From NCBI GenBank assembly GCA_963765765.1, contig CAVXYC010000029.1, positions 64,001 through 128,000 of the forward strand: 64,000 nucleotides of DNA. Reading direction: 5' to 3'. Positions within the stretch are counted from its first letter, which is position 1; the number at the start of each line of letters is the position of its first letter. A program made the position numbers and the translations under genes. The notes below the pieces were generated by a model. It was not told where the DNA came from. It did no database searches and worked only from the letters and a program-made list of their open reading frames with translations. This stretch comes from an uncultured Chloroflexia bacterium. GTDB lineage: Bacteria; Chloroflexota; UBA6077; JACCZL01. This document shows positions 1 to 12,516 of the stretch, piece by piece.

Positions 1-77
1 AGGCCGATTCCCAGAATCGGTCGAAGTACGATGGCGCGTGTGAGGCGACGAATAATCCTCCCGATTACACGACCCAT
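1..77 (-). CDS. Possible 5' end of a membrane/secreted protein running off the window edge
   Basis: ATG at 77 opens MGRVIGRIIRRLTRAIVLRPILGIG..., with no stop before position 1. The basic-then-hydrophobic start resembles a signal or anchor sequence. It is divergent from ddl and too short to confirm. Confidence 0.3.
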   Translation of the reverse strand, partial: MGRVIGRIIRRLTRAIVLRPILGIG

Positions 78-459
78 GCGTGTCTGGTCATCTCCCCATG
101 TGGCTTTGTTTGGTGGACCTGTGAAATAAAACGGAGATTCTACGCATACGACCCACAAACATCGCCGCCACATCCACTCCTATTAGCCAGATTGGCTTTG
201 TGAACCGAAGGATTTGTCGCGCGGGTTGAGCGCGATGTCACTAACACGTTAGTGGATTCGGCCGTCGACTTCCTTGTTTTCCATGCACGAACGAGAGGGT
301 CTCCGTTCGGGAGAAGACTCAGTCAGCGATGAGAATGGAAACACTGAATCGACGTCAGCCTTTCTGGACCGATGTCACACCATTCTAACACGGGTCCTTA
401 TGACACCTTGCGATTGAGTTGAGCCTCCACCTATCCTCGGTCGCGCGGAGGTAAGGACG

Positions 460-1596
460 TTGGGTCAAAGGATTCGGGTGGGTGTCCTCTTTGGAGGACG
501 ATCGGGCGAGCACGAGGTCTCGCTGGCTTCAGCAGAGTCGATACTCCGATACATCGACCAGGCTAAGTACGAGGTCGTGCCAATTGGTATCACGCGCGAA
601 GGGCGCTGGCTCGCGTCTGGAGATCCACTCGCGGCGCTCAAGTCCGGTCAAACCCACAAATTCCTCGCGTCAGGTGACGGCGGTGAAAAGGTTCTCCCGG
701 CAGCGCTGCTCCCTGACCCAGTTCACGGAGGTCTCGTGACCTGGTCAGAGGGCGCGGCCTCTTCTCAGCTTCGCGAGCTTGCTTCAGTCGACGTCGTATT
801 TCCCGTACTCCATGGCACATTTGGTGAGGACGGAACTATCCAGGGGCTCCTGGAGATCGCCGGCCTGCCTTACGTGGGCGCTGGGGTACTCGGATCGTCT
901 CTGGGTATGGACAAGGGCAAGATGAAGTGGCAATTCCGCGCGCGTGGATTGCCCCTGGCTGACTTTATCGAAATTCGCCGTTCGCGGTTCGAGCGCGATC
1001 CGGAAGCTGTTCTCGCCGAGATTGAGCAGACGCTGGGATTGCCGGCCTTCATCAAGCCCGCACGCCTCGGCTCCAGCGTTGGGGTCAGCAAGGCACGCAC
1101 GAGAACCGAGCTTCGGGACGCGTTGACGCTTGCGGCTGAGTTTGACGATCGGCTGATCGCGGAGCAGAATATCAATGCTCGCGAGCTGGAATGCAGCGTG
1201 CTCGGGAACGAAGAGCCTATCGCCTCCGTAGTCGGAGAAATTATTCCCGCGAATGAGTTCTACGACTATGAGGCCAAGTATCTCGACGAGGGCTCGAAAC
1301 TGGTCATTCCGGCTGAGATCAGTAACGGAATCTCAGACGAAATTCGCGCGATGGCTATTGAGGCATTTGATGCCGTGGACTGCGCGGGAATGGCGCGAGT
1401 TGATTTCTTTCTGGAGCAAGATACGAATCGAGTACTGCTGAACGAGATCAACACGATACCGGGATTCACCAATATCAGCATGTATCCCAAGCTCTGGGAA
1501 GCGTCAGGTTTGAGCTATGGCGATTTGATCGATCGGCTCATTCAGCTTGCCATTGAGCGACATGCGGATCGGGCTCGAAACCGGGTCAATCGTTGA
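460..1596 (+). CDS. ddl: D-alanine--D-alanine ligase
   Basis: Motifs [43 protein letters not shown] (Tyr-type omega loop) and [16 protein letters not shown] before the TTG start. Confidence 0.97.
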
Positions 1597-1695
1597 TGAA
1601 ATCTGGTCAGGACTGCTCAAGGGCTTCCCTCACGGTCAACTCAAGAACATGAGCCACAGGCTAACGACACCTACCGCGGCTCCCCGTTCGGGGAA

Positions 1696-2982
1696 TTAGA
1701 GCTCCGCAAACGCTTCCACCGCCGCATCGATTGTCCGATCAATGTCATCGTCGCGGTGCGCGAGGCTTACGAATGCGGCCTCAAATTGAGATGGCGCGAA
1801 ATAGACGCCACGGGCGAGCATGGCTTGAAAGAAGCGCGCGTATCGAGTTGTGTCGGCCTTCTTGGCGCTCTCGTAGTCAAACACGGGCTGGCCGATAAAG
1901 AAAGACGTCATCATTGAGCCAACTCTGTTTGAGAACATCTCAATGCCGTGCGCCTTCGCCGCTGAGGCGATTCCATCACTGAGCCGGGCTCCGAGTTTCT
2001 CGAGTCGGCCATAAACGCCAGGCTCTTGAAGCGCTCGAAGAGTCGCGAGTCCGGCAGCGACGGCGATGGGATTCCCTGAGAGTGTTCCTGCCTGGTAGAT
2101 CGGTCCGGCGGGTGCCATGCATTGCAGGACATCCCGTCGCCCTCCATAGGCTCCCACAGGCAGGCCTCCGCCGATGATCTTTCCCAGGCAGGTGATATCT
2201 GGGGTGATGCCGAATCGCCCTTGAGCGCCGCTATAGGCGACGCGAAAGCCGGTGATGACCTCGTCAAAAATGAGCAGCGATCCGGAGCGCTCTGTGATCT
2301 GGCGAAGCCCCTGGAGGAATCCGTCTGTAGGGGGCACCACGCCCATATTCCCCGCCACGGGCTCAACGATGACCGCGGCGATGTCTGAACCGAATTGATT
2401 GAATGCCCGTTGGACGCTCTCAAGGTCGTTGTAGCCGGTACTGAGCGTCTCGCTCGCTAGCCCAGGTGGGACGCCAGGGCTATCCGGAGACCCAAGAGTG
2501 AGCGGTCCGGATCCGGCTTTTACTAGTAGGCCGTCGGCGTGTCCGTGATAGCACCCATCGAACTTGATGATCTTGTTTCGACCAGTGAAGCCGCGCGCAA
2601 GGCGTATGGCCGACATCGTCGCTTCAGTACCGGAATTGACCAGCCGAACCATCTCAACGGATGGCAACGCGTCAGTAATGAGCTCAGCCAGCTCTACTTC
2701 TCGTTCGGTGGGTGCACCAAAGCTCGTGCCATTGCTCGCGGTGCGCTGAATGGCCTCGACCACCGATGGATGGCCATGGCCCAAAATCAATGGTCCCCAC
2801 GATCCGACGAAGTCGATGTATTCGCCACCGTCCGCGTCAAAAACGCGTGACCCGGCGCCGCGCTCAATAAACAGTGGCTGACCGCCGACCGAACGAAACG
2901 CGCGAACGGGGCTATTGACTCCGCCGGGAATTACATGTTGTGCGCGGGCGAAAAGGTGCTTTGAGTTCGGGCCGACGCTCAT
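1696..2982 (-). CDS. hemL: Glutamate-1-semialdehyde 2,1-aminomutase
   Basis: Motifs [38 protein letters not shown] (PLP Lys) and [10 protein letters not shown]. Start placed at ATG 2982 (ATGA overlap with hemB stop). Confidence 0.97.
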
Positions 2983-3959
2983 GCGCACATCCATCGGCAC
3001 ACGTCGGGGGCATGGTACGAGATGATCATGTCCGCGCCCGCTCGCTTGATACCGGTAAGAATCTCCATCGTTACTCGTTCCTCGTCAAGCCAGCCGTTTG
3101 CCGCGGCAGCCTTGACCATCGCGTACTCTCCGCTCACGTTGTAGGCGACAAGCGGCAGGTCGAATCGATCTCGCGCCATGCGAATCAGGTCGAGGTAAGC
3201 GAGCGCGGGCTTCACCATCATGAAATCGGCGCCTTCGTTTATGTCCAGCTCGATCTCTCGCATCGCCTCACGGGCATTGCCCGAGTCCATCTGATAGGAG
3301 CGGCGATCGCCGAACTGTGGCGTGCTATCCGCGGCTTCGCGAAATGGTCCGTAGAAGCCGGATGCGAACTTGGCGGAATAGGCCATGATGGCCGCTTCCG
3401 AGTATCCCTTTTCATCCAGGGCTTTCCGGATCGAGCCGATTCGGCCATCCATCATGTCGGACGGTGCAATGATGTCCGCACCGGCCTCGGCCTGAGCCAG
3501 GGCTGTCTTGTTCAGGAGCTGGATGGTGGCGTCATTCCGAACGTGGCCGTCCTCCACGATGCCGCAGTGACCGTGACTGGTGTACTCACAAAGACACAGA
3601 TCGGCAATCACGATGAGATCGGGGCAATGCTCCTTCAGCTCCCGTATGGCGACCTGAACGATGCCATCCCGTGCATAAGCTTCAGAACCAAACTCGTCCT
3701 TCGATTGGGGTAGGCCAAAGAGGAGCACGGCGGGAATTCCAAGCTTCGCAACCTCACGGGCGTCCGCCACAACTTCGTCCACCGAAAGCTGGGACACGCC
3801 TGGCATTGATGAGACCGGCTGACGGACACCTCGTCCTGGAGTGACGAAATACGGATAGATGAAATCAGACGGGGAAAGGGCTGTTTCGCGCACCATCCGT
3901 CGCATCGTTTCTGTTCGCCGCAAGCGTCGCATGCGCAGGGCCGGAAATGCACTCGTCAC
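2979..3959 (-). CDS. hemB: Porphobilinogen synthase (Zn-type)
   Basis: Motifs [30 protein letters not shown] and [12 protein letters not shown] start at 3959 overlaps the cobA/hemD stop. Confidence 0.97.
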
Positions 3960-5494
3960 GGTTGCCCCCTCTCCTGTCTCCGAATTGACCACCAGTCCAC
4001 GACGACGGACACTAAACCCTCGACGGTGTAGTCACTGGCAACGGACTCCACGCGAAGGCCTGCGTTGCGGGCGGCCTCGGCGGTTGTAGGACCAATGCAG
4101 ATACTCGGAATGTTCCGAGCTACTCCCTCACGCTCTTCTCCGACCGCGCTCACGAAGTTGGCGACGGTGGAGGAGCTGGTGAACGTCAGGACGTCAAGTT
4201 CGCATCGGTCAAGAAGGCCGCGGAGCTCCTCCGCGCGATGCGGGGCCGGAACCGTCTTGTAGGCGACAAACGATTCGACAGAAGCCCCCAGCTCCTTGAG
4301 TCCATCGACGATCTCTGTCGGAGCGATATCGCTTCGGAACAACGCAATTCGAGCGTGGTTTACGCCTACTTCCCCGAGCTTCTGCACGATCGCGCTCGAA
4401 ATGAATTTTGGGGGCGTCACATCCGCCTGCAGGCCGTAGCCCCGCAGCGCTCGCGCGGTGGCTGGTCCGATGGCGCAGATGCGCGTGTTACCGAGCACGC
4501 GTACATCCTTCCCGGAATTGAGCAGGCGGTCCATCGTCGCCCTCACTCCATTGGCGCTCGTGAATACCACCCAGTCGAAAGAGCTCAGGCTATGTAGCGC
4601 AGCGTCCAACGTCTCCAAGTGCTCGGTCGGCTGAATATCGATCGCAGGCAGCTCAATTGGCGCGGCTCCTAGCTCACGCAATGAGCGAACGAAGGAGCTT
4701 GACTGTTCTCGCGACCGCGTAACTAGAACTCGAAGGCCGAAAAGCGGGAGGTCCTCGAACCACGATAACTGGTCACGGAGCGCGACGACGTCACCCGCAA
4801 CGAGAATGGCTGGTGGTTTGACTGACTGTGCTCGAGCCCTGTCAGCTATGGTCGCCAACGTTCCAGTCACGGTCCGCTGTCGTGGCGTTGTTCCCCACTG
4901 GATGATCGCAGCAGGCTGGTCTGGCGCGCGGCCCGACCGGATAAGTCGCTCGACAATCTCCGCCATCTGCTCAACTCCCATGAGCACGACAAGCGTATCT
5001 GCACCGTTGGCGAGCGCGTCCCAACGGTGGGAAGACTCCGACTTTGATGGATCCTCGTGACCTGTGAGCACGGTGAATGATGCCGCGATCCCGCGGTGTG
5101 TGACGGGTATGCCGGAGAATTCCGGGGCTGCAAGGGCCGAGCTAATACCCGGGACGATCTCGAATGGAATCCCGTGCTTGCGGAGGCAGAGGGCTTCTTC
5201 TCCGCCTCGTCCGAATACAAACGGATCACCGCCCTTGAGCCGGACTATCTTCTCCCCGGCCTGCGCCAACTCGACAAGCAGGTCATTGATCCCGTCCTGT
5301 GGCACAGCGTGATCGCGCGGTCCTTTACCTACATAGATCCGCCGAGCAGAAGGAGGCGCAAAGTCGAGGACCTCCATCGGGATAAGGCGATCGTGAACGA
5401 CCACGGAAGCATCCTCAAGGCATTGCTTACCGCGAACAGTAAGTAACCCGGGGTTGCCAGGCCCCGCTCCCACCAGTGCAACTTGCCAGATCAC
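3956..5494 (-). CDS. cobA/hemD: Uroporphyrinogen-III C-methyltransferase / uroporphyrinogen-III synthase fusion
   Basis: N-terminal half has [13 protein letters not shown] and [18 protein letters not shown]-terminal half has [19 protein letters not shown] and FTSSSTV. Confidence 0.95.
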
Positions 5495-6423
5495 GAACCG
5501 CCCAGCCCTGGATTCGCGAGTCGCGCCATTATTGCTGAAAGGTCGTCTGCAACTAGCCTTCCGAGCTGATCGGCATCTGACGCCGGCCCGGTCCTCTCCG
5601 ATCGTGCCACGTCCTGCCCGGACTCATCGGCGACCACCGCCAACAAATGCAGCTCGTCACCGTTTCGTCGTCCAATGGCCCCCACAGGCACGCGGCAACC
5701 TCCCCCAATAGCTGCCAGAAACGATCGTTCCGCCCGAGTTTCGGTATTCGTTATTTCGTCGTTCACATGGGCCACCAGGGCGAGCGTCTCAGCGTCGTCG
5801 GACCGGCATTGAATCGCCAACGCACCCTGGCCGACCGCCGGGATGCATTGCTCCGGGCTGAACACCGTCGAGATTCTCTGATGAAGCCCGAGGCGACTCA
5901 ATCCAGCGACGGCGATGACCAGGCCATCGAACTGCCCCTCGTCCAACTTGCGGAGGCGAGTGTCAACGTTTCCCCGGACTCCAGCGAATTGCAGATCAGG
6001 ACGGAGCGCCCGTAGCTGTGCAATTCTTCTCGGACTGCCCGTCGCCAGTATCGCGCCTGTCGGCACGTCGGAGAAATCTGTTCCATCGCGAGTGACGAGC
6101 GCATCGCGCGAATCCTCTCGTACCGGGACCGCACCGATCACCAGGCCGGATACTTCCTCTGAGGGCAGATCCTTCAGAGAATGCACGGCAATATCGGCTC
6201 GTCCACTCAAGAGCTCTTCTTCAAGTGCTTTGACAAATACGCCTTCACCGAGCTGGGCCAGAGATATGTCCTGGCGGACGTCCCCACGTGTGCTGACTAT
6301 CTCGATAGACAGCTCCTGTCTGCCGAGAAGCGGCCGAAGCATATCTGCAACAGAGTGCGCCTGCTTTAGCGCCAGGGTGCTGCCGCGGGTGGCTATCCGC
6401 TGCGGGCGCATCCCCGTTGGCAC
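5491..6423 (-). CDS. hemC: Hydroxymethylbilane synthase
   Basis: Motifs ATRGSTLALKQA, DIAVHSLKDLP, RGNVDTRLRKL, PAVGQGALA and GGCRVPVG. Confidence 0.97.
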   Translation of the reverse strand: MPTGMRPQRIATRGSTLALKQAHSVADMLRPLLGRQELSIEIVSTRGDVRQDISLAQLGEGVFVKALEEELLSGRADIAVHSLKDLPSEEVSGLVIGAVPVREDSRDALVTRDGTDFSDVPTGAILATGSPRRIAQLRALRPDLQFAGVRGNVDTRLRKLDEGQFDGLVIAVAGLSRLGLHQRISTVFSPEQCIPAVGQGALAIQCRSDDAETLALVAHVNDEITNTETRAERSFLAAIGGGCRVPVGAIGRRNGDELHLLAVVADESGQDVARSERTGPASDADQLGRLVADDLSAIMARLANPGLGGS

Positions 6424-7685
6424 TAGTCGTCAGCCAGGCTAAAGAGGTCGCGAACTGTTCTCGCGTATGCACGACTATCGTGCTCGGTCGAACTCGACTT
6501 GAGTCGAATGATGGGATCATGCAGAAGCTTGTTGACGAGAGCCACAGAGAGCGCCTGCACGACGTTTCTGTCGCGATCCGAGAGGCCTGACAGACGTGTC
6601 AGTGCCCGGTCTAGCTCTGATTGCCGTATCGACTCGGCGCGACTGACCAGCGACTGGATAAGTGGCGTCACCTCGCGACTTTCCCGCCAGGATTCAAAGC
6701 TCGCGACCTCGTCCTCGATCAACGCTTCAGCTTGAGGAAGCTCGAGCTTCCGAATTTCGAGGTTGCGCGAGCAGATTCCATCCAGATCATCGATATTGAA
6801 GAGATGGACATTGGAAACCTCGGCCGCCTCAGGCGCCACGTCACGGGGTACGGCGATATCCACAATGAGCATTGATCGGTCCATTCGCTGGAGCATGGCT
6901 CTCTCAACGTCCTGACGCTCCAGGACATGAGCTCCAGATGCGGTGGAGCTGATGACGATGTCTGATTGGGCGAGCGCAGCGTCGATGTCGTCCAGCGTGC
7001 AGGGCTCCCCGCCCAGTCTCCGCGCAATCCGCTCGGCACTTGCCATACCACGGCTTCCGACGATCAAGCGACTAACGCCGTGAGCTCGCAGGGTGCGGAC
7101 AGTGAGCTCACCCATCTTGCCCGCGCCAATGACGAGAGCCGTGAGGCCGCGCAAATCTCCGAGGACATCTCGTGCAAGCTCGACGGCCGCATAACTAACA
7201 CTCACCGCGTTCCTGGCTATGTCGGTCTCAGTCCGAATGCGCTTGCCAGTCGCCAGCGCTTGCTCGAAGAGGCGGGACATCGTCGGACTTAGAGTTTGGT
7301 GCTGTCGTGCAATATCATACGCCGACCGAAGCTGCCCCAGAATTTGCGGCTCACCAATCACCATCGATTCCAGGCCGGAGCTCACGCGAAGTAAATGACG
7401 GACTGCTTCCAGTTGAGCAAAGGTCTCCGTGCGTTCCTCTAGTTCCAGTCCCGGCACCCCGCGCGAATCAGCGAGAAAACGGATCAGCGCCTCACTGCCG
7501 GAGCGCAGGTGGCCGACGTCCGCGTAAATCTCAGTTCGATTGCAGGTCGAGAGAATGACACCCTCATGGGCAAATTGTCCCAGGCGGTCAATCGCCTGGC
7601 CCAGGGTATCTGGAGGAAAGGCCAATCGCTCCCGCAGCTCGAGGGGCGTCGTGTGATGGCTTACGCCCACGGACACGAGCGTCAT
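6423..7685 (-). CDS. hemA: Glutamyl-tRNA reductase
   Basis: Motifs LSTCNRTE, SGLESMVIGEPQILGQ, IGAGKMG and DIAVPRDV. Confidence 0.97.
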   Translation of the reverse strand: MTLVSVGVSHHTTPLELRERLAFPPDTLGQAIDRLGQFAHEGVILSTCNRTEIYADVGHLRSGSEALIRFLADSRGVPGLELEERTETFAQLEAVRHLLRVSSGLESMVIGEPQILGQLRSAYDIARQHQTLSPTMSRLFEQALATGKRIRTETDIARNAVSVSYAAVELARDVLGDLRGLTALVIGAGKMGELTVRTLRAHGVSRLIVGSRGMASAERIARRLGGEPCTLDDIDAALAQSDIVISSTASGAHVLERQDVERAMLQRMDRSMLIVDIAVPRDVAPEAAEVSNVHLFNIDDLDGICSRNLEIRKLELPQAEALIEDEVASFESWRESREVTPLIQSLVSRAESIRQSELDRALTRLSGLSDRDRNVVQALSVALVNKLLHDPIIRLKSSSTEHDSRAYARTVRDLFSLADD

Positions 7686-8335
7686 TTGAGGCTTCCATTG
7701 AGCGCTGTGGCTTCAAGACGCGAAACGATGGTCTTGACTGCTTCGGCACGGCGTCCAGCGCGAATGTGAGCCAGGATTGACGCATCGTGCATGAGCTCTC
7801 GCCATTGGTCTCCAGTTGTCGAGATTTGCGATCCGCGAACCGACTCACGCGCCTCGGCGATGACTTCCAGGAGTGCCAGGCGCTCCTCTGTCAATAGCGT
7901 ATCGAGCTCTTCCCGCAGAAGTCGTGCAAATGCCGGGCTTCGTCCAGATGTGGAGAGGGCTACCGTGACATCGTCGCGCCTTACGACGGCCGGGACATGG
8001 AATGTACCGTCATGCGGCGAATCTGCTCGATTGACGAGGGACCCGTTGTGACGAGCGACTTGCTCAAGCCGAGCGTTCACCTGAGCGCTGTCAGTAGCCA
8101 GGAACACCAGGTTCGCGCCATCCAGGTCTTGTTCATGCGCTTCGCGCTGGATCCAGCGGATGGCCTGATTATCCACCAGATCACGAAGGTCGGGGTGAAC
8201 CCCAGGCGCGATCACCGTCACGTCGGCTCCCGCGTCCAGCAGCCCGCGGGCTTTGCGCAATGCCACCGCTCCGCCACCGATCACCACACAGCGAAGTCCT
8301 TCGACCCGAACGAACATGGGATAGAGGCGAGTCAT
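7682..8335 (-). CDS. sirC: Precorrin-2 dehydrogenase / sirohydrochlorin ferrochelatase (SirC/Met8/CysG-N family)
   Basis: Motifs YPMF, VVIGGGAVALRK, LVNRAD, FHVPAVVRR and STSGRSPAFAR; lies within the hem operon. Confidence 0.9.
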   Translation of the reverse strand: MTRLYPMFVRVEGLRCVVIGGGAVALRKARGLLDAGADVTVIAPGVHPDLRDLVDNQAIRWIQREAHEQDLDGANLVFLATDSAQVNARLEQVARHNGSLVNRADSPHDGTFHVPAVVRRDDVTVALSTSGRSPAFARLLREELDTLLTEERLALLEVIAEARESVRGSQISTTGDQWRELMHDASILAHIRAGRRAEAVKTIVSRLEATALNGSLK

Positions 8336-8976
8336 TTCGCGGCAACCGTCCTTGTCGCGGCTTCGTGCGCCTCGGTCATGCTGAGCAGGACGTGATCCAT
8401 AAACTGATTGACCCGAATGAGCGCGTCAGCCACACGCGGTCCACGTTGGGGTTGATCTCCAAACCAGCGTGTGACGCTTTCTACGACCGGATTCCGAAAG
8501 AAAAGAAATGCCTGCATCGCATCGTGGAGAGACAGGCCCAGCCGAGCCGCGACCTGACCGTATTCAGTGGCGACCCCCGCTCCATCGCGAAGACTGCGTT
8601 CGCGCTCGCGTTTGGTAGAAGCCAGCACGAATGCCGTGAGCTGGTGGAGCATTGAAGAGCCCAGCGTACGGAAATGCTGACGCTCGACTGGCTCGAGATC
8701 CTGCATCCAGCCATGGTCAGGGTGGCCACGACGCTCTATCTGACCGTAGCGCTCGCGACTGGAGAGGAGGGCGGCGCTCAAGCTGGCTTCCATAGGAGGA
8801 GACGCCTCGGTGAGTTGGTGTAGGTCGTCTTCAAGGTATCGCCTATGGCCGCCAGGAGTGACGTAGGCGCGTACTTTTCCTTCGTCCGTCCAGTGTCGCA
8901 GCGTCGCTTGATTGACGCCGAGCAGCTCGCAGGCTCTACGGATACTGACCCAGCGCACATTGGGATTGACTTCCAT
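8332..8976 (-). CDS. Transcriptional regulator: BldC/Xis-like (MerR-superfamily, HTH_17) N-domain plus all-helical RsbRD_N/globin-like C-domain; first gene of the hem operon
   Basis: N-terminal SIRRACELLGVNQATLRHWTDEGKVRAYVTPGGHRRY. C-terminal helical segment EYGQVAARLGLSLHDAMQAFLFFR. ATGA overlap with sirC. Start placed at ATG 8976 rather than TTG 9012. Confidence 0.8.
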   Translation of the reverse strand: MEVNPNVRWVSIRRACELLGVNQATLRHWTDEGKVRAYVTPGGHRRYLEDDLHQLTEASPPMEASLSAALLSSRERYGQIERRGHPDHGWMQDLEPVERQHFRTLGSSMLHQLTAFVLASTKRERERSLRDGAGVATEYGQVAARLGLSLHDAMQAFLFFRNPVVESVTRWFGDQPQRGPRVADALIRVNQFMDHVLLSMTEAHEAATRTVAAK

Positions 8977-9000
8977 TCGAGATGTGTCTGTCGATCCCCA

Positions 9001-9030
9001 AAAATCTGTCAAAATCTATCAATCTCTTCG
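9001..9030 (-). promoter_or_regulatory. 10-bp-period direct repeats; candidate operator
   Basis: Minus strand reads CGAAGAGATT GATAGATTTT GACAGATTTT, between the promoter and the regulator start codon. Confidence 0.55.
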
Positions 9031-9046
9031 GAAATGCTTCAGAGAT

Positions 9047-9075
9047 AGCTTATGTCGTCGGTATTGAAGCGTCAA
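9047..9075 (-). promoter_or_regulatory. Sigma70-type promoter of the hem operon
   Basis: TTGACG-N17-TAAGCT on the minus strand. Confidence 0.7.
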
Positions 9076-9118
9076 GAACGCCCGGTTGTATCTGGCTGAG
9101 CGTCACCATGATTTCATA

Positions 9119-9150
9119 GATACGCGTCCAATCGATACGCGTTCAATCGA
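9119..9150. repeat. 15-bp tandem duplication
   Basis: GATACGCGTCCAATC GATACGCGTTCAATC GA (one mismatch). Confidence 0.75.
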
Positions 9151-9202
9151 AGTTGTCTGGCGTCGGTCTAGGGGACGAAAGCCCTGATAAGATCTACGGC
9201 CT

Positions 9203-10273
9203 ATGCGTGTACTGCTCGCGGGCGGCGGATCCGGAGGCTCGGCAACGCCGGTTCTCGCGGTCGCGGAAAAGCTTCGGGCTCGAGACTCGTCCAGCGAGCT
9301 TCTGTACGTTGGCACGAGCACGGGGCCGGAGCGTGCGCTGGTGGAATCTGCTCGAATCCCATTCCGGAGTGTCCCGAGCGGTAAGCTGCGTCGGTACTTC
9401 GATTTGCAGAACGTCTGGGATGTTGCGAATGTAGGTCGCGGCATGACCCATTCCTTCGGGATCGTTCGCCAATTCAAACCAGATGTCGCCTTCGGAGCAG
9501 GCGGCTTCGCCTGCGTGCCACCTCTCTGGGCCGCGCGGCTATCCAACGTGCCCGTGGTCATTCATCAACAGGACGCCATTCCGGGACTGGCGAATCGCCT
9601 ACTTGTACCAGCCGCCACGTCTATAAGCGTGACCTTTCAGGAGACAATCCACCACTTCCCGAAATCTAAGACGTGGCTCAGTGGGAACCCCGTACGCCAG
9701 TCCGTATTGGAGGGCGACCGCGATCGATTCTTCGCCCGATTCGATCTCGACCCACAACGTCCGCTGGTCCTCATCACGGGAGGGGGTACCGGCGCCCTGC
9801 GACTCAATCAGCTCGCGGCTCAGGCCTCGGAACGGCTGATTCAGCATGTACAGGTGGTACATCTGACAGGGCAGGGGCGGGAGGTTGAAGTCCAGTTTCG
9901 CTCCCCGCACTACCTGCAGCGCGCATTCCTCATTGACGAGATGGCTGACGCTTTGCACGCCGCGACCGTCGTCGTGTCCCGCGCGGGACTTGGAACGCTG
10001 AGTGAGATCGGCGCCCTGGGGCTGGCTGCGATTGTGATACCTATGCCAGGCTCACATCAACTGGCTAATGCCAGGGCGTTCGCTGAGCGCCGCGCCGCTG
10101 ACGTGCTGAACGAGGAGACGCTCACGTCGGACGTGCTTGCTGATCGCGTTTTTCGTCTGATCGCCGACGTTGAGATGCGAGCGGCCCTGGGGGAAGCGGC
10201 CAGGCGTCTGCTCCCCCTTGATGCGGCAGATCGGGTGGCTGATCGCATCCGGGAGCTAGTGGTTGACAGCTAA
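9203..10273 (+). CDS. murG: MurG-family glycosyltransferase (GT28)
   Basis: Motifs GGGSGG, SGKLRRY, GAGGF, PGLANR, GNPVR, TGGGTGA, SRAG and HQLANA. Confidence 0.88.
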   Translation: MRVLLAGGGSGGSATPVLAVAEKLRARDSSSELLYVGTSTGPERALVESARIPFRSVPSGKLRRYFDLQNVWDVANVGRGMTHSFGIVRQFKPDVAFGAGGFACVPPLWAARLSNVPVVIHQQDAIPGLANRLLVPAATSISVTFQETIHHFPKSKTWLSGNPVRQSVLEGDRDRFFARFDLDPQRPLVLITGGGTGALRLNQLAAQASERLIQHVQVVHLTGQGREVEVQFRSPHYLQRAFLIDEMADALHAATVVVSRAGLGTLSEIGALGLAAIVIPMPGSHQLANARAFAERRAADVLNEETLTSDVLADRVFRLIADVEMRAALGEAARRLLPLDAADRVADRIRELVVDS

Positions 10274-12516
10274 CGCGAGACGAGCTGCGGCTCCGTCGCT
10301 TGCACCTCTTCCACGATGATCTTCAGTCCTCCGTTGGCTGACGTCTCAACGTCAATACCATTGCCGGTTTGGTGAACCGAAATGTCGATCGATGCACCTG
10401 CGACACGAAGATTTTTCATCTCAACGATCGTCACTCCGGCTGGCAGGAGGGGCCGCACGGTCATGCGCCGCCGAGGTGCATCCACATCCAGACCAAGTAC
10501 GCTCTGGACAATCAAGAACACACTCGCGGCCGCCCAAGCCTGTGGGCTGCACGAGACCGGGTACTGAGCAGGCATGGAGAAGTAGCGACGGTCCCTGGCG
10601 AAACCGCAGTAGACCTCTGGAAGGCGGTAACTTGGAAATCGGACCGCCGCGTCAATGACTTCGCCGGAAAGAATTGCAGCCTCATAGTCGAATCCGGCTC
10701 GTTTAAGGCCCGCGATGATGATCGAGTTGTCGTGCGGCCAAACGCTGCCGTTGTGATAACTCATCGGATTGAAGTTGGGCTCGTGACTGCTGAGTGTCCT
10801 GATCCCCCAACCACATCGCAGATCTTCAGACATCATGCGTCGCACCACGGTGGCACGAAGCTCCTCAGGGATGATGCCGCTCCAGATGTTGTGGGCCGCA
10901 TTGGAGCCAATCGCATGTATCTGCTCCTTCTCCGGACCCAATGCCATGGCAAAGTAGGAGTCGTCCTTCATCCAAAACCGCGCGAGATAACGCTCCTGCA
11001 ATAGTCGAGCTGCCTGGGTCTGCTCTTCGGCCCGATCAGTCAGCCCAAGGAGCTGGAAGAGATCAGCCATGCGCATCCGCGCATCGTAGACATAACCCTG
11101 GACTTCGCTGAGCGCAATTGGGGGTTCAACGGGTCGGCCATCGCGATATGAGATCGAATCGTGCGAGTCCTTCCAGCCCTGGTTTCGTATGCCAGTTTCA
11201 GAGCGTGAGCAATATTCGATGAATCCGTCACCGTCCTGGTCACCGTAGTTATCAATCCAACCGATCGCGGCATCGATATGCGGCAGCATCGACCGCGCAA
11301 AACCCATGTCGCCCGTCCATCGAACGTACTCGCTGAGTGTGATCAGGAAGAGAGGCGTTGCATCCACGCTCCCGTAATAAGGCGTATGTGGGACCTTGCC
11401 GAGATTGGCAACCTCCCCCATGCGAATCTCATGGAGAATCTTGCCCGGCTCCTCGTCGCGCCAGTGGTCGACACGTGAGCCTTGATATTTGGCCAGAAAT
11501 CGGAGCGTCGCGTAGGCGATGTTGGGATGCAAAGGAAGCGATTGCAGCGCCGTAATGAGACTGTCTCGGCCGAACGGGACACTGAACCAGGGGATTCCCG
11601 CCGATGGCAGATATCCATCCGGCACCTGATCGCTGAGCAGCCGGAGGTCACTTGCCGAACGACGGATGACCGCGTTGAGCAGTTCATTGTCGGTACGGAT
11701 GACGGTACTGCTATCGGCCCACACCGTATACGAATCGCGGATGAGTAGGAACTCCTGGTCAAGCGTTAAGCCGCGCGACCCGGGGCTCTCGATTGCCTCA
11801 TCCTTGATGTGTGGCTCTATCAGCGTGGTGATCACACGATATTGCGAGGGTGGAATCTCCAGCCGAAAGTGGACGTCAGCCCAGGCCGGATCCACCCGCG
11901 TATCCACACGCGGATCGCCAGCACCGCTAATGCCGGGCAGCTCCCTCAGGTCATTACTGATCGGCTCGGGCGTATGGCAGGTAAGTCCAGTGGGTTCTCG
12001 GTCGAATTTGACAATTGTTTCACGCTCGGTGCCATCCAGACCGCGGTACCCGAAGACGAGCTGACCGTCACTCGACGCCGGTGCGGAAATCTCACCGAAC
12101 TCAGTTCGTTTGAGATAACCGCGCACATCGAACATGTCTCGAAAGTCGGAACCTAGTCGTAGTACGACGTCGAAGGTAACGGCGTGGGAGTTGTAGTTGA
12201 AAAATCCCAGACGCTCATGGAGACCGTTATGAAGAAATCGATTGCGGCGGATGCTAACCGTGCGCGGCGGCACGAGATTCCCTGTTGAGTCCACGAGCCG
12301 AGGGTTCGCAAACTGAAGGTTGGTCATGAAATTGTGCTCGCCCGATGCGCTGAGAAGCTGGGGCTGAGCGCCGTTGATCTGGAGCTCAAAAATGCTCAGA
12401 AACCGTGTGTCGCGCCAGTACAGTCCCTGACCGTCAATATTTCCTGACCGAACATCGCCGCTTGGATCAGTCACCAGAAACATCTGGTTCTCTTTCAGCA
12501 CCGATCGATCAATCAC
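10270..12516 (-). CDS. Amylo-alpha-1,6-glucosidase / glycogen debranching family glycosidase
   Basis: Motifs GLYWRDTRFLS, AGIPWFSVPFGRDSLI, EEPGKILHE, NQGWKDS, SYHNGSVWPHDN and CSPQAWAA. Confidence 0.9.
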   Translation of the reverse strand: MIDRSVLKENQMFLVTDPSGDVRSGNIDGQGLYWRDTRFLSIFELQINGAQPQLLSASGEHNFMTNLQFANPRLVDSTGNLVPPRTVSIRRNRFLHNGLHERLGFFNYNSHAVTFDVVLRLGSDFRDMFDVRGYLKRTEFGEISAPASSDGQLVFGYRGLDGTERETIVKFDREPTGLTCHTPEPISNDLRELPGISGAGDPRVDTRVDPAWADVHFRLEIPPSQYRVITTLIEPHIKDEAIESPGSRGLTLDQEFLLIRDSYTVWADSSTVIRTDNELLNAVIRRSASDLRLLSDQVPDGYLPSAGIPWFSVPFGRDSLITALQSLPLHPNIAYATLRFLAKYQGSRVDHWRDEEPGKILHEIRMGEVANLGKVPHTPYYGSVDATPLFLITLSEYVRWTGDMGFARSMLPHIDAAIGWIDNYGDQDGDGFIEYCSRSETGIRNQGWKDSHDSISYRDGRPVEPPIALSEVQGYVYDARMRMADLFQLLGLTDRAEEQTQAARLLQERYLARFWMKDDSYFAMALGPEKEQIHAIGSNAAHNIWSGIIPEELRATVVRRMMSEDLRCGWGIRTLSSHEPNFNPMSYHNGSVWPHDNSIIIAGLKRAGFDYEAAILSGEVIDAAVRFPSYRLPEVYCGFARDRRYFSMPAQYPVSCSPQAWAAASVFLIVQSVLGLDVDAPRRRMTVRPLLPAGVTIVEMKNLRVAGASIDISVHQTGNGIDVETSANGGLKIIVEEVQATEPQLVSR

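Follow-up and report, generated by a model that had tools for sequence, protein, structure and literature searches.

A putative regulator gene heads a seven-gene tetrapyrrole operon

The window analysed here is a 64-kb stretch of DNA (contig CAVXYC010000029.1, positions 64,001 to 128,000) from an uncultured soil bacterium of the phylum Chloroflexota. Near its beginning it carries seven minus-strand genes, read from position 9012 down to position 1696, of which the first encodes a putative DNA-binding regulator and the others, in the order sirC/cysG-N, hemA, hemC, cobA-hemD, hemB and hemL, encode enzymes of tetrapyrrole synthesis. Positions are those of the whole window and all features of the operon lie on the minus strand. 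The genes are as follows:

8332..8976, minus strand: regulator coding sequence, 214 amino acids from ATG 8976 (the longest open reading frame, 8332-9012, begins at TTG 9012)
7682..8335, minus strand: sirC, precorrin-2 dehydrogenase of the CysG N-terminal type, possibly also a ferrochelatase (Pfam NAD_binding_7 and Sirohm_synth_M; TIGR01470, 142.6 bits)
6423..7685, minus strand: hemA, glutamyl-tRNA reductase (TIGR01035, 439.8 bits)
5491..6423, minus strand: hemC, hydroxymethylbilane synthase (TIGR00212, 315.9 bits)
3956..5494, minus strand: cobA-hemD fusion, uroporphyrinogen-III C-methyltransferase and uroporphyrinogen-III synthase (Pfam TP_methylase and HEM4; TIGR01469, 311.6 bits)
2979..3992, minus strand: hemB, porphobilinogen synthase (Pfam ALAD, 504 bits; NF006762, 510.8 bits); probable start GTG 3959, which overlaps the stop of cobA-hemD
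1696..3000, minus strand: hemL, glutamate-1-semialdehyde 2,1-aminomutase (TIGR00713, 640.6 bits); probable start ATG 2982, which overlaps the stop of hemB

Pfam and NCBIfam models identified all six downstream genes as tetrapyrrole enzymes, as a preliminary description of the locus had proposed. The same description had reported that the seven genes are joined by overlapping start and stop codons, and direct reading bore this out at six of six junctions, with overlaps of 1-4 nt. The sequences are ATGA (regulator/sirC), ATGA (sirC/hemA), TAGTG (hemA/hemC) and GTGA (hemC/cobA), followed by GTGA at cobA-hemD/hemB if hemB starts at GTG 3959 and ATGA at hemB/hemL if hemL starts at ATG 2982; both of these starts are in frame and agree with the start of the Pfam matches. 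Since all six junctions overlap, the seven genes look translationally coupled. An Rfam search of window positions 1-12000 returned no family match, so that nothing points to a riboswitch in the leader.

The TTG at 9012, from which the longest open reading frame begins, falls inside a tandem-repeat element described below, and the closest homologues, P0001 (97% identical, 214 amino acids) and P0002, begin at a methionine aligned with ATG 8976. From these sequence comparisons ATG 8976, giving a protein of 214 amino acids, appears the likelier start of the regulator. Residue numbers follow the TTG 9012 start.

The regulator joins a BldC-type helix-turn-helix to a sensor-globin-like domain

Two domains were predicted in the regulator:

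8806..8952, minus strand: BldC/excisionase-type MerR winged helix-turn-helix (HTH), residues 21-69 (Pfam, NCBIfam and superposition on BldC)
8338..8793, minus strand: sensor-globin-like C-terminal domain (C-domain), predicted dimerisation and effector module, residues 74-225 (AlphaFold2 model and structure matches)

The N-terminal domain matched the Pfam models MerR (39.1 bits, cut-off 28.2), HTH_17 (36.1 bits, cut-off 27) and MerR_1 (34.9 bits, cut-off 21.6) as well as the excisionase domain model TIGR01764 (33.7 bits, above the cut-off of 28.8). The match to NF033787 (HTH_BldC) reached 37 bits and lies below the cut-off of 77, which leaves the domain outside the BldC subfamily as this model delimits it. 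In the structural model the N-domain superposed on BldC (6amk) with a Z of 8.1 and a root-mean-square deviation (rmsd) of 1.1 Å over 52 of 52 residues, at 27-28% identity. A profile of 114 homologues, searched against the sequences of the Protein Data Bank (PDB), matched over the HTH only: 8jbs, a putative cobalamin-binding protein (E 3e-8), BldC (6amk and 6ama; 9e-8), CarH (5c8d; 0.006) and the LitR-like 3whp (0.007). The above-cut-off HTH matches place the protein in the excisionase/BldC-like subgroup of the MerR superfamily, and together with the PDB profile matches and the superposition they agree with the earlier assignment of the N-domain to the BldC/excisionase/CarH type. The architecture is nevertheless neither that of BldC nor that of a classical MerR activator. 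The proteins are 214-226 amino acids long with a 150-residue C-domain, where BldC is a single domain; the promoter spacer is 17 nt instead of the over-long 19-20 bp, with repeats downstream of the -10; and in the model the HTH is followed by a multi-helix globin-like bundle instead of a coiled-coil dimerisation helix.

The AlphaFold2 model of the whole protein had a mean predicted local distance difference test score (pLDDT) of 89.4, and the C-domain alone, modelled from 75 sequences, reached a pLDDT of 90.5 and a predicted template modelling score of 0.86, with helices at domain residues 2-21, 27-30, 34-56, 60-83, 88-111 and 114-151. Foldseek gave no match at E<=0.001 with either the whole-protein or the C-domain model. 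Its top rows were sensor globins, with template modelling (TM) scores of 0.62 for pXO1-118 (3pmd) and 0.55-0.60 for BpeGReg, DosC and AfGcHK. The fold assignment thus rests on TM scores of 0.55-0.67 and on the following Z values from VIA-align, with which helical models can score about 13 from a common arrangement alone:

3pmc_B, pXO2-61: Z 13.4 (rmsd 2.4 Å, 131 of 132 residues)
3zta, Moorella stressosome RsbR-type domain (MtR): Z 11.0
9fb1, MabR N-domain: Z 10.2
4zva, DosC globin: Z 9.5
2bnl, RsbR: Z 9.1
8j2w, photocobilin: Z 8.6
5ohe, AfGcHK: Z 8.6
4uiq, BpeGReg: Z 8.5
8j2y, photocobilin: Z 7.6
1or4, HemAT: Z 7.3

Coverage is nearly complete and almost all high rows are globin-fold sensors, which makes the assignment reasonable. 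The C-domain is predicted, with high confidence, to adopt a sensor-globin fold closest to the non-heme RsbR/pXO2-61 class; heme-based globin-coupled sensors match it below the non-heme globins (Z 7.3-9.5; TM 0.55-0.60). An all-helical C-domain of globin-like or RsbRD_N type had been suggested before, and the model and its structure matches point the same way at the level of prediction, the closest class being a non-heme one. The reported lack of a B12-binding domain was also confirmed, as there was no B12-binding Pfam match and NF052513 scored 14.5 bits against a cut-off of 400, over the HTH only.

At the sequence level, none of the 27 members scanned matched Pfam RsbRD_N (PF14361) at E<=1; precomputed hits were listed for 33 of 120 homologues. 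Rows for UreF and similar Pfam families were at chance level (E<=0.1 for the window protein, E<=1 for the 27 members) and were discarded, as was an unrelated topoisomerase (E 0.95), the sole row obtained when a profile of 75 C-domains was searched against PDB sequences. At E<=1e-3 a phmmer search with the C-domain yielded 224 cluster representatives; with few exceptions these were either fragments or proteins of 200-277 amino acids with the domain at about residues 75-220. This single-sequence search, as distinct from a profile search, gave no evidence of the C-domain in other architectures. The ESM Atlas returned only the cluster of the protein's own kind.

Relatives of the regulator head hem and ahb gene clusters

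A word-indexed search found 135 homologues, mostly from Chloroflexota and bearing generic names (MerR family, excisionase family, helix-turn-helix). Genomic context was assessed at the best 80 of 590 relatives, one genome per species being scanned, a sample that leans towards close relatives. Neighbouring genes were identified by local tblastn with the window enzymes and three proteins from locus L024, namely a NirJ1/AhbC-like radical S-adenosylmethionine (SAM) protein, an AhbD heme b synthase (454 bits, slightly below the cut-off of 500) and a fused AhbA-AhbB siroheme decarboxylase. The loci were distributed as follows:

13 loci: sirC or hemA within 300 nt downstream on the same strand
38 loci: ahbC-like, ahbD and ahbAB, then sirC-hemA-hemC-cobA/hemD-hemB
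16 loci: ahb radical-SAM genes only (6 with at least 5 kb of DNA, 10 on short contigs)
6 loci: no hem or ahb gene within at least 5 kb (L049, L055, L064, L069, L071, L075)
7 loci: too short to judge

In this sample of the best 80 of 590 relatives, hem and/or ahb genes lay directly downstream of the regulator in 67 of the 73 assessable loci, in keeping with the linkage that had been expected of homologues. The linked operons showed three layouts, one with sirC and cobA, one with plain hemA-C-D-B-L and one with the full Ahb branch. Because relatives head heme-synthesis clusters across the phylum, the family is probably a dedicated regulator of Chloroflexota hem clusters.

A survey of 401 sampled Chloroflexota genomes detected the C-domain profile in 180 (155 of 322 high-quality genomes; 104 of 217 genera) and HemA (TIGR01035, E<=1e-20) in 246. 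Both were found in 144 genomes, the regulator only in 36, hemA only in 102 and neither in 119; six unpublished genomes (G227, G038, G344, G173, G145, G272) count only in the HemA total of 246 and in the hemA-only cell. Thus hemA was present in 144 of 180 genomes with the C-domain versus 102 of 221 without it. Whole families possess hemA and no regulator, for example f21 (regulator in 0 of 17 genomes versus hemA in 16 of 17).

Five of the six unlinked loci adjoin peptidase, oxidoreductase or DnaE genes. Among five inspected genomes with the regulator and no detected hemA, the regulator adjoins an M24 peptidase gene in three (G009, G034, G160; in two of them also a subtilase gene) and serpin and DnaE genes in G123, whereas in G057 it stands between CbiX-type chelatase and AhbD-like genes, followed by a TRAP transporter. 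The peptidase, serpin and DnaE neighbours indicate that a sub-clade has left the heme context. Taken together, the unlinked loci and the mismatched genomes of the survey mean that the regulator family is neither universal in nor exclusive to hem loci.

Three neighbourhoods deserve separate mention. The sixth unlinked locus, from Intrasporangium (Actinomycetota; L071:5983-10761), carries a member of 33% identity, placed after a thioredoxin-like gene and between genes for a NapC/NirT-type multihaem cytochrome and an NrfA cytochrome c552; here, outside Chloroflexota, the setting is one of haem proteins. A 1.7-Mb genome without detected hemA (L093:4793-10694) has a cluster of CbiX-type chelatase, regulator, AhbD-like radical-SAM and TRAP-transporter genes that may be a tetrapyrrole salvage cluster. 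In the peptidase-linked sub-clade (L095:4573-6576, L097:4949-6703) the frame that holds the regulator stays open for 380-450 codons ahead of the HTH, a stretch without Pfam match that may be an N-terminal extension or a spurious frame due to high GC.

Tandem 10-bp repeats downstream of the promoter form a candidate operator

Upstream of the regulator start the following elements were found:

9070..9075, minus strand: -35-like hexamer TTGACG, read directly, with the hexamer at the matching position in the orthologous loci L003-L005
9047..9052, minus strand: -10-like hexamer TAAGCT, 17 nt after the -35, matching TATAAT at 3 of 6 positions, identical in L003
8998..9027, minus strand: predicted operator, three tandem 10-bp units AGAGATTGAT, AGATTTTGAC and AGATTTTTGG, in the stretch between the -10 (20 nt away) and ATG 8976

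The TTGACG-17-TAAGCT promoter of the preliminary description is present at 9075-9047, its -10 hexamer matching the consensus at half of its positions. The orthologous locus L003 also reads TTGACG-17-TAAGCT, and the hexamers recur in place in L004 and L005, with spacers that, judged by eye, have diverged. That the hexamers are kept while the spacer sequences differ supports a real promoter. A further repeat, a 15-nt tandem direct repeat with 87% identical copies, lies at 9119-9148, 44-73 nt upstream of the -35 and between the hem promoter and a divergent gene at 9203; it is absent from L003.

The repeat search picked up two of the three units at 8998-9027. The pattern AGATTT-N4-AGATTT has exactly one occurrence in the 6.49-Mb genome of the organism, at the hem promoter, and orthologous loci keep the tandem-unit arrangement while the flanking sequence has diverged. 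Upstream regions were scored at 79 loci, one of the 80 having too little upstream DNA. The strict pattern GATT-N6-GATT was found within 270 nt upstream of the regulator at 22 of 79 loci versus 0.0075 expected per upstream window of this size, an expectation drawn from both strands of all loci (53 matches in 1.90 Mb, 26 of them outside the upstream windows). A degenerate unit pair was present in 41 of 79 upstream regions; in background windows its frequency was 8 of 6802, and in shuffled sequences 10 of 1580. Other loci showed operator variants of 2-4 units. At L054 and L068 the repeats are located after the regulator, ahead of ahbD. The region upstream of the ahbAB gene in the organism's own genome showed no AGATT-type repeat by eye. 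Across that genome the looser AGATT-N5-AGATT matched mostly the terminal repeats of a small repeated element (see below).

According to PMC5859096, BldC binds direct repeats head-to-tail, with the consensus AATTXXXX(C) and a spacing of one helical turn; GATTTCCCC is given as a natural site. By their sequence the repeats at 8998-9027 appear to be of the same kind and are taken as a predicted operator. By eye, the repeats were invariably placed after the -10-like hexamer, where a repressor would be expected to sit and a MerR-type activator would not. In one sub-clade (L014, L021, L025, L030, L033, L036) a near-perfect 30-bp palindrome built from a TATAGAA half-site takes the place of the tandem direct repeats upstream of the regulator, which suggests that the same HTH type can be arranged head-to-head.

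On balance we lean towards the reading that the regulator is a one-component autorepressor of the hem operon, with a BldC-type HTH acting on the repeats and a sensor-globin dimer as the likely effector module. A transcription factor found throughout the Chloroflexota would thereby control heme (tetrapyrrole) operons, its own included. The winged HTH would recognise two to three tandem 10-bp AGATTT-type direct repeats at 8998-9027, and binding downstream of the -10 would block RNA polymerase and so repress the regulator gene together with sirC, hemA, hemC, cobA/hemD, hemB and hemL. The RsbR-like sensor-globin domain would dimerise via its last two helices and hold two HTHs together. As the likely effector-binding module, it would set the affinity for DNA in response to a product or intermediate of the pathway (heme, siroheme or a porphyrinoid), which would amount to feedback control.

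Several observations count against this autorepressor model. A consensus promoter scan of 1400-9400 called no promoter where shuffles lead one to expect 2.6, the match to the consensus being weak. A palindrome of the same half-site, not a direct repeat, was found in 6 of the 22 upstream regions displayed. Six of 73 assessable loci are unlinked to hem or ahb genes, 36 of 180 regulator-positive genomes lack hemA at E<=1e-20 while 102 hemA-positive genomes lack the regulator, and four of the five inspected genomes with the regulator and without hemA have it beside peptidase, DnaE or serpin genes. Moreover, related genomes are not independent, so that the counts overstate the statistical support.

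The protein might instead not regulate hem genes at all and be a general BldC-like DNA-organising or developmental regulator that shares a transcript with them. BldC itself is described as pleiotropic (PMC5859096), and the sub-clade of the family in non-heme contexts would fit such a role. Yet the hem/ahb linkage survives three operon architectures and several classes, and the operator-like repeats are unique in the organism's own genome and track the hem/ahb promoter even when this lies downstream of the regulator. We regard this explanation as highly improbable.

The C-terminal domain is predicted to dimerise and may bind an effector

For the C-domain, the homodimer test gave 0.55 (runs 0.54, 0.59 and 0.55) versus 0.00 for the best of 3 controls, with a partner pLDDT of at least 79 and at least 95% of contacts shared between runs; of proteins with a solved structure, 20 of 30 homomers and 1 of 23 single chains attained the mark. 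The last two helices build the predicted interface, to which L162, E167, R173, D206 and L209 belong. Solved sensor-globin dimers have this interface too, so the result may reflect likeness to those. Among 114 aligned homologues, G152, R173 and D206 are the invariant residues of the C-domain; H216 is present in 98 and H172 in 92, the window protein and close relatives of it having Phe at position 172. Judging from the dimer model, the most conserved polar pair (R173, D206) may serve dimerisation rather than ligand binding. R173 had been considered as the ligand-binding Arg of RsbR-type globins, and this was rejected since it falls in the predicted interface.

The globin-like domain could instead be a dimerisation scaffold without effector, in a constitutive autoregulator that buffers hem expression while heme or iron control is exerted elsewhere, for example on HemA stability. 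The position of the most conserved C-domain residues (L162, E167, R173, D206, L209) in the predicted dimer interface speaks for it, and BldC functions without any effector domain (PMC5859096). However, W102, G118, Y128, G152, A156, F169, H172 and H216 are conserved outside the listed interface, the full 150-residue fold is retained across the phylum although a coiled coil would be enough for dimerisation, and all solved relatives of the fold are sensor or ligand-binding domains. A pure scaffold is considered improbable, and a domain that both dimerises and responds to an effector remains the preferred reading.

As to the nature of the effector, the tight association of the regulator with tetrapyrrole genes makes a tetrapyrrole the most economical choice. 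The domain would then be a non-canonical globin without F helix that binds heme or a porphyrinoid (siroheme, Fe-coproporphyrin or uroporphyrin(ogen)) and feeds back on the whole pathway, including the Ahb route. The preliminary description had pointed to histidines in the motifs LHDAM and FMDHVL; these are present in the window protein and are not conserved, His being outside the four commonest residues at position 163 and found in 5 of 114 homologues at position 207. Its expectation of a conserved His or Met in the homologues was not borne out in the alignment of 114.

Four observations argue against a bound tetrapyrrole. No invariant His, Cys or Met was found among the 114 aligned homologues, and the C-domain holds no conserved Cys or Met among them. 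Heme globins carry the proximal His on the F helix, and the C-domain model lacks this helix: the helices equivalent to E and G are joined by only 4 residues, which leaves no separate F helix. The nearest solved folds are non-heme globins. Finally, the dimer model puts the invariant R173 and D206 at the interface and not in a pocket. Given the missing F helix and the lack of an invariant His, canonical heme binding of the globin type by the modelled C-domain is unlikely. With no ligating residues conserved and non-heme domains as the nearest folds, our estimate for a tetrapyrrole effector also stays tentative and clearly short of an even chance.

In PMC11617747 the non-heme globin domain of MabR is likewise described as lacking the F helix and heme-ligating residues. 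The RsbR family is described as potentially fatty-acid-binding, and globins of the phycobiliprotein and photoglobin type are linked to linear tetrapyrroles (PMC8717448).

The same regulator and operator could also serve a globin domain that senses something other than a free tetrapyrrole, either O2, NO or redox state via bound heme, or a fatty acid-like ligand. Gas or redox sensing would suit the O2-sensitive radical-SAM Ahb route, the heme-based O2 sensors DosC, AfGcHK, BpeGReg and HemAT come next in the structure comparison (Z 9.5 to 7.3, TM 0.55-0.60), and the Intrasporangium homologue between NapC/NirT-type and NrfA cytochrome c genes stands in a respiratory context; the missing F helix and the lack of an invariant His speak against it. 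Binding of a fatty acid or another hydrophobic or carboxylate ligand, in the manner of the RsbR/pXO class, would agree with the best fold matches, which are the non-heme pXO2-61, MtR, MabR and RsbR (Z 13.4 to 9.1). A fatty-acid signal, however, has no evident logic for a tetrapyrrole operon, and 67 of 73 loci are tetrapyrrole-linked. We consider an effector other than a free tetrapyrrole, of either sort, rather unlikely.

Comparison with known regulators and sensor domains

Irr, HrtR, HssRS, PefR, HbrL and Rex (upstream of hemACD in Streptomyces) are heme-responsive or heme-synthesis regulators, and they belong to Fur-like, TetR, two-component, MarR, LysR and Rex families. To our knowledge a BldC-type HTH and a globin fold occur together in none of them, few dedicated transcriptional regulators have been described for bacterial heme biosynthesis, and none is known for the siroheme-dependent Ahb route. 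The window regulator resembles them in its proposed role, that of a one-component protein, encoded next to what it controls, which governs heme synthesis or homeostasis. In the open literature, subscription-only papers being outside the scope of the search, no description was found of a regulator of hem genes with a MerR/BldC HTH and a globin domain, and no heme-biosynthesis regulator is described there for Chloroflexota or for the siroheme-dependent (Ahb) pathway.

With BldC of Streptomyces (6amk, 6ama) the regulator shares the winged-HTH fold and sequence type as well as repeats with a period of one helical turn and an (A/G)ATT core. In contrast, BldC is a 68-residue single domain that has no dimerisation or effector module, and a pleiotropic developmental regulator (PMC5859096), whereas the window regulator has a further globin-like domain of 150 residues and is bound to a single pathway.

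CarH/LitR and the photocobilins (5c8d, 3whp, 8j2w, 8j2y) have a related N-terminal HTH, and the C-terminal parts of the photocobilins 8j2w and 8j2y match the window C-domain at Z 8.6 and 7.6. A photoglobin-type domain linked to MerR regulators and related to the bilin-binding phycocyanin globins is described in PMC8717448. Photoglobins are a precedent in which a non-heme globin associated with tetrapyrroles is attached to an HTH of this type. Unlike CarH/LitR and the photocobilins, the window regulator has no B12-binding domain and no light-related context, and its globin domain matches the RsbR class better than the photoglobins (Z 13.4 versus 8.6).

The best whole-domain structural matches, the RsbR N-domain, pXO1-118/pXO2-61 and the MabR N-domain, lack heme-ligating histidines. 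They are dimeric sensor modules; the N-domain of MabR elutes as a dimer (PMC11617747). Their outputs differ from that of the window regulator, being STAS (stressosome), none, or GGDEF-like plus a PucR HTH, and none of them is fused to a BldC-type HTH or linked to tetrapyrrole genes. Nor do they show significant sequence similarity to the window C-domain (profile of 75 C-domains against PDB; Pfam at E<=1, 27 members).

The BldC-like HTH, the non-heme sensor globin and the one-component pathway regulator are thus each of a known kind; new are their combination, the target pathway and the predicted operator. Since an operator is predicted and the fold model is of high confidence, the hypothesis can be tested directly with purified protein and 30 bp of DNA. 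Should a tetrapyrrole be bound, the ligand range of non-heme sensor globins would be extended and the protein would be a compact tetrapyrrole-responsive switch; feedback by such a ligand on the whole pathway would make it a phylum-wide one-component tetrapyrrole sensor of new architecture. Should none be bound, a BldC-type HTH with a dimeric sensor domain would still bear on how such HTHs read direct repeats.

Heme route of the organism and further observations

The genome of the organism (92% complete) encodes a fused AhbA-AhbB siroheme decarboxylase beside ccmA/ccmB/ccmC-type cytochrome c maturation genes (L090:1804-7130). In this 92%-complete assembly no ferrochelatase was found, no AhbD was detected above the cut-off (best 63 bits), the URO-D family gave a weak partial match of 40.8 bits, and the last steps to heme were not found. 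The presence of AhbAB without ferrochelatase and with a weak URO-D match indicates that the products of the operon, uroporphyrinogen III to sirohydrochlorin or siroheme, probably feed a siroheme-dependent heme route.

A soil metatranscriptome contig of 197 nt covers 8639-8832 at 95-99% identity; such contigs show neither start, strand nor true transcription. The best DNA datasets containing the region cover at most 0.34 of the sampled words.

Elsewhere in the organism's genome, outside the window, repeated elements of about 100-160 bp were observed (L085:2944-3103, L086:2990-3099, L087:2895-2997). They have terminal inverted repeats, each of about three tandem 10-bp GCAGATTnAC units, and single ends occur at L088:2920 and L089:2950. 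The elements look like miniature inverted-repeat transposable elements or like binding arrays for another excisionase-type HTH, and their GCAGATTnAC unit resembles the AGATT core of the hem operator.

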